64,000 nucleotides of DNA from Escherichia coli (GTDB lineage: Bacteria; Pseudomonadota; Gammaproteobacteria; Enterobacterales; Enterobacteriaceae), in NCBI RefSeq assembly GCF_003018255.1, contig NZ_CP027440.1; one strand, written 5' to 3'. Position 1 is the first letter of the stretch. Each line of letters opens with the position of its first letter. A model generated the notes under the pieces. It made no database searches. It had not been told where the DNA came from and saw only the letters and a list, made by a program, of their open reading frames with translations. The position numbers were made by a program, and so were the translations under genes. Positions 50,188-52,071 of this stretch are shown one piece after another.

Positions 50188-52071
50188 ATGATTAAAAAAG
50201 CTTCGCTGCTGACGGCGTGTTCTGTCACAGCCTTTTCCGCTTGGGCACAGGATACCAGCCCGGATACTCTCGTTGTTACTGCTAACCGTTTTCAGCAGCC
50301 AGTAAATACTGTCCTTGCACCTACTGATATTGTTACCCGTGAGGATATTCAACGCTGGCAGTCGAAAGACCTCAACGATGTTATGAGTCATCTCCCCGGT
50401 GTAAATATCTCTCAAACTGGTGGAATGGGGACGAGTTCTTCTCTTTATGTTCGAGGCACTGAATCGCGCCATGTTTTAGTGTTGATTGACGGTGTGCCGA
50501 TGGCCCGTGCCGGTATCGACAATGCAATTGATATTAGCCAGTTCCCGGTATCACTTGTACAGCGTGTTGAATATATTCGTGGGCCGCGTTCTGCCGTTTA
50601 TGGTTCTGGTGCCATCGGAGGTGTGGTGAACATTATTACAATGAGTAATGATGAGAAAGCTCAGATCAACGCAGGAATGGGTACAAATGGTTATCAAGCC
50701 TATGATGGGGTAATAAATAAACGTTTTGGCGATACGATGGTAACAGCAGCAGGTGCTTACCAGACGACCAAAGGTTTTAACATTCAGCCTGGCTCACCAT
50801 ACAGTGGTGATAGCGATCGCGATGGATATCGCAACAAACTTTTCTGGGGGGGGCTGCAGCATAAGTTTAACGATAACTTCTCGGGGTTCTTCCGTGGTTA
50901 CAGCTACACAGCTAATAATGATTACGACCAGGGCTCGATGTATGGTTCTGCTACTGGCAACGAAGAAGCTCAGAATTACAACCAGTCCTGGGATACTGGC
51001 CTACGCTATAACTCCGGCATCTATTCGTCTCAGTTAATTGCTAACTATCAACGACTCAAGAATTATAACTACACAAATAATCTTGGTCGTTATGCGGGAG
51101 ATGCCACCCTGGATGACATGGAACAGCGTTATATTCAGTGGGGTAATAGCATTGAGGTAGGGCATGGTGCAATTAGCGGCGGGATCGATTGGAAACAGGA
51201 AAAACTGACGTCCAGCAGCATTACAAAATCAGATGATTACGAACGCGATACCACCGGGTTATACCTGACTGGACAGCAACAGATTTCCAATGTGACTTTG
51301 GAAGCTTCTGGCCGAGAAGATCATGATGAACAGTTTGGCTGGCATGGTACCTGGCAGACAGCTGCTGGCTGGGAGTTTATTGATGGCTACCAGGCAACAC
51401 TTTCTTACGGTACCAGTTTTCTTTCGCCTTCTCTTGGACAGCAATACGGGGCTGCTCGCTTTGCTTCAATTTATGGTCCTGGTATTGCAGCCAACCCAAA
51501 TTTGAAGCCAGAAGAATCTAAACAGTGGGAGATTGGAATTGAGGGGGTAACTGGGACTCTGGATTGGCGGCTCTCAGGATATCGTTATGAAATTCAGAAC
51601 CTGATTGATTATAAAAGCATAAATAATGTCAACCAGTACATTAATGTGAAATCAGCCACGATTAAAGGGCTGGAATGGACGGGAAATATTACAACCGGTC
51701 CTGTTGAACATCGCTTGACGTTACAATATGTTGACCCGCGCGATGATGAAACAGATAAAGTGCTGTACCGTCGGGCAAAACAGCAGGTTAAGTACGAGTT
51801 GACTGGACAAGCTTATGGTTTCGAATGGGACGTATCTTACCAATATATAGGTCAACGATACGACAACGCTTATGACGAGACCTCTGGCTCATCACATACA
51901 GTTAAATTAGGCGGTGTGAGCTTGTGGGATCTTGCGGTTGCGTATCCGGTCACCTCTCATCTAACAGTTCGTGGTAAAATAGCCAACCTGTTCGACAAAG
52001 ATTATGAGACAGTCTATGGCTACCAAACTGCAGGACGGGAATACACCTTGTCTGGCAGCTACACCTTCTGA
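50188..52071 (+). CDS. btuB: TonB-dependent outer-membrane cobalamin receptor, divergent/mosaic allele
   Basis: Track ORF 50143..52071 trimmed to [35 protein letters not shown]... (627 aa); TonB box DTLVVTA, C-terminal ...GSYTF; central region differs strongly from recalled K-12 BtuB. Confidence 0.9.
   Translation: [627 protein letters not shown]

Follow-up and report, generated by a model that had tools for sequence, protein, structure and literature searches.

The btuB gene in the analysed stretch of Escherichia coli DNA (assembly GCF_003018255.1, contig NZ_CP027440.1; 64,000 nucleotides, hereafter the window) is a mosaic. Codons ~36-574 have been replaced, via homologous recombination, by the corresponding part of a deeply divergent btuB, and the sequence on either side is native to E. 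coli. In K-12, BtuB is the well-studied receptor for vitamin B12, phage BF23, and colicins E and A. We refer to the allele in the window as class IIa. The explanation that we consider likely as a whole is that the IIa core was imported by recombination, that the product kept its function as BtuB, and that it presents an altered receptor to phages and colicins. The coding sequence (plus strand, 50188-52071; 627 amino acids) is identified by its score against the family model NF007926 and by the RefSeq annotation of the same allele in strain E2348/69; its ATG at 50188 sits inside an open frame that spans 50143-52071.

The window was aligned to K-12 BW25113 and identity was calculated in 100-nucleotide (nt) windows. 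Identity is 95-100% over positions 44800-50290 and again from 51960 on, and 37-75% in between, so btuB is neither uniformly similar to the K-12 gene nor diverged in the manner of its neighbours. In the core, 666 of 1570 aligned sites differ from K-12 (42%), against 59 of 3583 in the flanks (1.6%; chi-square 1498). Synonymous sites in the core are saturated relative to K-12, and the synonymous divergence (dS) of trmA and murI is ~0.07-0.10. These values were obtained by the Nei-Gojobori method; between-class comparisons are saturated and were returned as undefined. The excess of divergence over the flanking genes had been anticipated in the original prediction, which placed the divergent core at 50290-51910. 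That placement was accurate: the 5' junction falls between 50275 and 50293, and the 3' junction between 51910 and ~51930. The K-12-like ends and leader proposed there are also borne out, as the protein matches that of K-12 exactly over its first 35 and last 53 residues, 100-nt windows stay at 95-100% identity up to 50290, and the cobalamin riboswitch is unchanged.

At sites just outside the junctions that distinguish E. coli from other genera, the window has the E. coli-specific base, which shows the ends to be native DNA, beyond mere conservation of sequence. Together, the sharp boundaries, the saturated synonymous sites, the existence of relatives in other genera with 83-88% protein identity, and a foreign GC content at third codon positions (GC3) show that the core was replaced by recombination with a distant allele, as originally proposed, and did not arise by fast local evolution.

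The imported core (plus strand, 50290-51910) contains loops L1-L10, all but one of the 22 barrel strands, and the greater part of the plug; its GC content is 45.7% and its GC3 41.6%. At the protein level, 357 of 630 aligned columns are identical to K-12 BtuB, an overall identity of 57-58%. With loop boundaries taken from PMC7360065, the plug is 68% identical to K-12, the barrel outside the loops 56%, and the extracellular loops 42%, in agreement with the predicted gradient from a moderately divergent plug to a strongly divergent barrel and loops. Five loops carry insertions or deletions relative to K-12, namely L2, L3, L7 (+11 amino acids), L8, and L10. Divergence is strongest in the extracellular loops without being confined to them; plug and strands are deeply diverged too.

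Allele classes were counted in 5,426 complete E. coli genomes, and four classes sum to the entire set. Class I, the K-12 or reference type, occurs in 4,962 genomes. Class IIa, with 58% protein identity to K-12, occurs in ~283; searches with the core recover it in 282-283 genomes at no less than 99.6% identity, in one copy each and always on the chromosome. Carriers include the enteropathogenic E. coli (EPEC) strain E2348/69, the pig isolate NT1N34, and SCU-171 (100% identical). Class IIb is present in 90 genomes and shares 77% protein and ~70% core nt identity with IIa. Class III is present in ~91 genomes and shares 83% protein and ~74% core nt identity with K-12. Representatives at the native locus are the IIb allele of UPEC132 (locus L005, 5467-7305) and the class III allele of 2017.09.02CC (locus L095, 2511-4355; also locus L097, 2511-4355), and the junctions of both classes lie at nearly the same positions as those of IIa. 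Altogether, 464 of the 5,426 genomes (~8.5%) have a btuB at the native locus that is not class I.

We compared nine IIa carriers, and all nine have the junctions in common and nearly identical cores. Mean pairwise diversity among them is lowest in the core, at 0.0024, and reaches 0.016 in fabR-trmA and 0.014 in murI. The same junctions and the near-identical core fit a single import of IIa. The flanks show 6-7 times the diversity of the core, which indicates that the block has since moved among E. coli lineages by ordinary recombination. Some of the nine carriers have, and others lack, an island between sthA and fabR. This island consists of genes for an M20 aminoacylase and a citrate-proton symporter; it occurs in E2348/69 (locus L004, 342-2867), UPEC132 (locus L005, 320-2845), and others, and is absent from the window, K-12, and NT1N34.

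Relatives of the IIa protein were sought in a search of 5.8 billion proteins and in a scan of species representatives. The best matches outside the E. coli cluster are BtuB-annotated proteins with 83-88% identity in Citrobacter, Salmonella enterica, Kluyvera, Phytobacter, and Raoultella. Relatives with 83-88% identity from Citrobacter, Salmonella, Kluyvera, Phytobacter, and Klebsiella spallanzanii occupy the same trmA-btuB-murI locus, and the common Salmonella class II protein is encoded within the same oxyR-sthA-fabR-yijD-trmA-btuB-murI locus. Members of the 90%-identity protein cluster of class IIb also come from E. fergusonii, Citrobacter amalonaticus, and C. farmeri. The species-representative scan comprised the 80 loci with the highest similarity to the query and under-samples class I relatives. 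Across these loci, TrmA is 85-98% identical in most Enterobacteriaceae, and BtuB is anywhere from 50 to 92% identical to the E. coli classes, irrespective of taxonomy. Clustering the cores of the 80 species at ~70% identity gives at least nine classes. Citrobacter, Klebsiella, Kluyvera, Kosakonia, Enterobacter, Buttiauxella, Yersinia, Serratia, and Escherichia are each split between classes, and core identity drops to as little as 0.51 in pairs whose TrmA proteins are at least 97% identical. The relationships of btuB in these 80 Enterobacterales species thus conflict both with the neighbouring genes and with taxonomy. The set of at least four E. coli classes, the same split in Salmonella (see below), and the exchange across genera go beyond what was originally predicted.

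Two individual records from the wider comparison deserve separate description. Escherichia sp. MOD1-EC7003, which is not E. coli, encodes another class II core (locus L016, 2501-4354) with 75% nt identity to IIa and a strongly differing composition (GC3 66.9%); its trmA has 96.5% nt identity to that of the window. A record titled Chryseobacterium sp. 18061 (locus L081) contains an enterobacterial trmA-btuB-murI region, whose TrmA shares 89% identity with that of E. coli and whose BtuB shares 78% with that of K-12. This record is probably contaminated or mislabelled.

Sequence conservation around the core suggests how such exchanges may take place. When the window is compared with Citrobacter, Salmonella, Kluyvera, and Klebsiella, nt identity over trmA-btuB-murI is mostly 70-85%. 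Two segments stand out. The segment at 51943-52122 takes in the final 130 nt of btuB along with the first 100 nt of murI. Its nt identity across genera is 88-98%, and it contains exact runs of 32-57 nt. On the other side, stretches of the riboswitch and leader (49948-50010, 50083-50123, and 50153-50211) are 85-97% identical, with exact runs of 24-41 nt. Only these two segments are long enough to anchor homologous exchange between sequences this far apart, and the variable core lies between them. We hypothesize from this arrangement that the conserved arms guide crossovers. The overlap of reading frames, together with presumed murI expression signals, would explain the conservation of 51943-52122.

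In the mechanism we propose, a deeply divergent btuB core replaced the resident codons ~36-574 by homologous recombination. One crossover occurred in the region of the leader, signal peptide, and TonB box, and the other in the last ~160 nt of btuB, which overlap the murI start; both regions are similar among distant alleles. The IIa block has since passed among E. coli lineages by ordinary recombination. The altered loops would probably weaken binding by phages and colicins adapted to K-12, and an advantage of rare alleles would then account for several classes remaining at low frequency in E. coli, Salmonella, and related bacteria.

The elements of the locus are arranged as in K-12, with the gene order trmA-btuB-murI followed by an rRNA operon. 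The conserved upstream neighbour trmA (minus strand, 48719-49819) is native to E. coli and has 97.9% nt identity with K-12. The cobalamin riboswitch in the btuB leader (plus strand, 49933-50122) lies within the conserved 5' arm; its match to Rfam RF00174 covers the full model and scores 87.8 bits, against a gathering score of 31.5. The native 5' end of btuB (plus strand, 50188-50289) encodes the signal peptide, the TonB box (DTLVVTA), and the first plug residues. The conserved 3' arm (plus strand, 51911-52122) comprises the last 53 btuB codons and the start of murI. The murI gene for glutamate racemase (plus strand, 52016-52873) overlaps the end of btuB by 56 nt; for its start we follow RefSeq as annotated at identical loci, and the open frame itself opens at 52004. 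Elsewhere in the window, between argH and oxyS, an accessory insert of two genes, manD (D-mannonate dehydratase) and a major facilitator superfamily (MFS) transporter gene, occupies 42162-44786. This insert is absent in K-12 and present in ~1,860 of the 5,426 complete E. coli genomes.

Several observations weigh against import of IIa with retention of BtuB function. No donor was found in the 5.8-billion-protein search or the species-representative scan, in which the closest cores from outside E. coli have 88% protein and 76-80% nt identity. The 90%-identity protein cluster of IIa has 566 members, and among the 40 that were read, all named ones are E. coli. The IIa core was not found on any plasmid or phage record in the plasmid and phage collections searched; the matches there are chromosome pieces filed as plasmids or phages, and they do not include the IIa core. 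The low diversity of IIa is also expected of a rare class under long-term balancing selection, and so does not by itself date the import. The divergence runs through the plug and membrane strands as well as the loops, and therefore points to old separate descent, beyond selection on loops alone. Lastly, IIa departs from K-12 BtuB at several plug positions that make contact with cobalamin in simulations of the latter. One alternative is that classes I and II predate the split of Escherichia and Salmonella and have been inherited vertically under balancing selection, so that IIa was never imported from another genus. Salmonella does have both: btuB of Salmonella Infantis SARB27 is class I, with 87.3% protein identity to K-12, and that of another Salmonella strain is class II, with 84.8% protein identity to the window allele. 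The trmA genes of the class I and class II Salmonella strains are 99.5% identical, which indicates that the same I/II split exists in both species at the same locus. That within-class identities are so similar, that dS between IIa and foreign class II cores (at least 1.6) is no lower than the dS of flanking orthologues, and that no donor emerged from the searches made would all follow from such an ancient polymorphism, and the diversity of 0.0024, for a class found at ~5%, is consistent with a small pool of alleles that has persisted for long. Composition is harder to reconcile with it. The GC3 of the IIa core lies below that of the K-12 core (51%) and trmA (60%) and also below that of the Citrobacter and Salmonella class II cores (48-54%), which is unexpected after long residence; it favours import, from a source or vehicle of lower GC that has yet to be sampled. 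Moreover, the patchy distribution of classes within genera across the 80 species would need transfer anyway, and the junctions are sharp and common to carriers, with E. coli-specific sequence directly outside. We therefore regard purely vertical descent of IIa as unlikely.

Another alternative is that the divergent core has a different substrate preference (e.g. for other corrinoids) and that nutrient specificity maintains the classes. The cobalamin-contact residues and calcium-cage positions of K-12 BtuB, with contacts from simulations, are given in PMC7360065. In the plug, the contact stretch SIFNASVSGSADLSQI of K-12 is replaced by a different 16-residue stretch in the window allele, and many contact positions in L2, L3, and L8 are also changed. 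Three of the five aspartates of the calcium cage are kept, as is Y149, and two cage positions are changed (D241E and D179N). These differences would suit a change of function. Against it, the TonB box is the same as in K-12, loop L11 retains all listed contacts, Y229 and D230 are kept, and the cobalamin riboswitch upstream is unchanged. IIa passes both curated equivalog models with full-length coverage (NF007926, 1042.3 bits with a cut-off of 836; TIGR01779, 665.1 with a cut-off of 599.7), as do all three E. coli classes that were run on them. The best solved structures by sequence are those of E. coli BtuB (E = 4e-209). An AlphaFold model of IIa (predicted local distance difference test, pLDDT, 78; predicted template-modelling score, pTM, 0.81) matches BtuB structures with template-modelling (TM) scores of 0.87/0.94, with other TonB-dependent transporters far behind, and the precomputed Pfam domains of the cluster representative are Plug and TonB_dep_Rec_b-barrel. 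The class II type is the sole detected btuB at the locus in many Enterobacteriaceae species. Between IIa and its class II relatives, nonsynonymous divergence (dN) is 0.07-0.10 against saturated dS, a pattern of purifying selection within class II. A switch of substrate seems very unlikely to us, and the IIa product is predicted from these sequence features to be a riboswitch-controlled, TonB-dependent cobalamin transporter. We also considered rapid divergence in place and a sequencing or assembly artefact, and the probability we attach to either is negligible. In-place evolution was rejected on the basis of saturated synonymous sites in the core, compared with a dS of ~0.1 in the neighbours, and of close relatives in other genera. 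An artefact was rejected given that the identical core recurs in 282-283 independently assembled complete genomes.

If IIa is an imported and functional BtuB, the question arises what favours such alleles. The receptor-binding proteins of phages and the receptor domains of colicins bind outward loops, and the outward loops are the most changed part of IIa relative to K-12. Phage receptor-binding proteins and E- and A-colicin receptor domains that are adapted to K-12 BtuB therefore probably bind IIa poorly. Such agents exist; in one large recent E. coli receptor screen, BtuB is the receptor class with the most phages (41) in the training set (bioRxiv 10.64898/2026.04.02.716166), and BtuB is the receptor of colicin E9 (PMC6351738). 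Selection by BF23-type phages and E colicins on the btuB core would be a reasonable reading of these patterns, and a rare-allele advantage would be the most economical reason for the persistence of classes at 1.7-5% in E. coli, and likewise in Salmonella. Inactivated btuB genes also occur in natural isolates. SLK172 has a frameshifted IIa allele (locus L091; a 1-nt deletion at the equivalent of window position 50846), Jnd12 has an IS3 insertion in a class III allele (locus L094, 1674-4854), and EC416 has an ISApl1 insertion in a class I allele (H212). Receptor loss is another route taken in nature.

The mosaicism of btuB is an instance of known receptor-gene mosaicism, a pattern published for fhuA. 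Mosaic fhuA clusters were described in Salmonella and Escherichia by Wang et al. (bioRxiv 10.1101/320069), who found that the gene tree conflicts with the species tree and with neighbouring genes and who read this as between-species exchange and escape from phages and toxins. Both genes encode TonB-dependent outer-membrane transporters, the fhuA product also serving as a phage, colicin, and antibiotic receptor, and in both there are few allele clusters, common to several genera, with insertions or deletions at loop tips. Unlike fhuA, which is another gene at another locus with another ligand, btuB has diverged over the whole core, including plug and strands (55-58% protein identity between classes), and not mainly at loop tips. 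The exchanged btuB block also has defined arms, in that it is bounded by the riboswitch/leader and by the overlap with the next gene.

Alleles of btuB also travel on mobile DNA in E. coli. A second btuB copy is reported (PMC6920203 and PMC9729726) on the LAA (locus of adhesion and autoaggregation) pathogenicity island of Shiga toxin-producing E. coli (STEC) that are negative for the locus of enterocyte effacement (LEE). In strain 2014C-3097 (locus L096, 2247-4355), this copy is found next to iha and a sulfatase gene. It comes with a cobalamin riboswitch of its own and a GC3 of 35.6%, and matches at ~88% nt identity occur in ~69 genomes. It is allied to class III, with 90% protein identity and 93-98% nt identity over segments, and shares 54% protein identity with IIa. 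Like IIa, the LAA gene is a non-K-12 allele of foreign composition with a cobalamin riboswitch. Unlike IIa, which was found at the native locus only, it is a second copy at another site. A more distant parallel is provided by the TonB-dependent receptors FrpB and HmbR of Neisseria, which are antigenically variable (PMC3574120 and PMC3068627); there, too, transport is kept while exposed regions vary by recombination and selection. In these receptors the selection comes from host immunity and affects a hypervariable loop region, whereas in btuB phages and colicins are the likely agents and whole-core alleles are exchanged.

Compared with K-12 BtuB (PDB 1NQE, 1NQH, 1UJW, and 2GSK), IIa shares the locus, riboswitch, TonB box, fold, and curated family models, and differs in its 57-58% overall identity, 42% loop identity, and five loop indels, including the 11 additional residues in L7. 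In a full-text literature search, whose coverage excludes most subscription journals, we found no description of allele classes of btuB at the native locus. BtuB is usually regarded as a conserved receptor. To our knowledge, all solved BtuB structures and nearly all phage and colicin work concern class I.

The minority classes reach the reference EPEC strain E2348/69. We tentatively raise the possibility that btuB is an exchangeable receptor cassette across the Enterobacterales, in which old cores move via the two arms and the class acts like a serotype for the host range of phages and E colicins. If class decides adsorption, btuB typing would improve the prediction of phage host range and would help in selecting phages or engineered colicins for use on clinical strains. 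The btuB locus also offers a clear natural case of intergeneric exchange that appears to be guided by conserved regulatory and overlapping-gene sequence.

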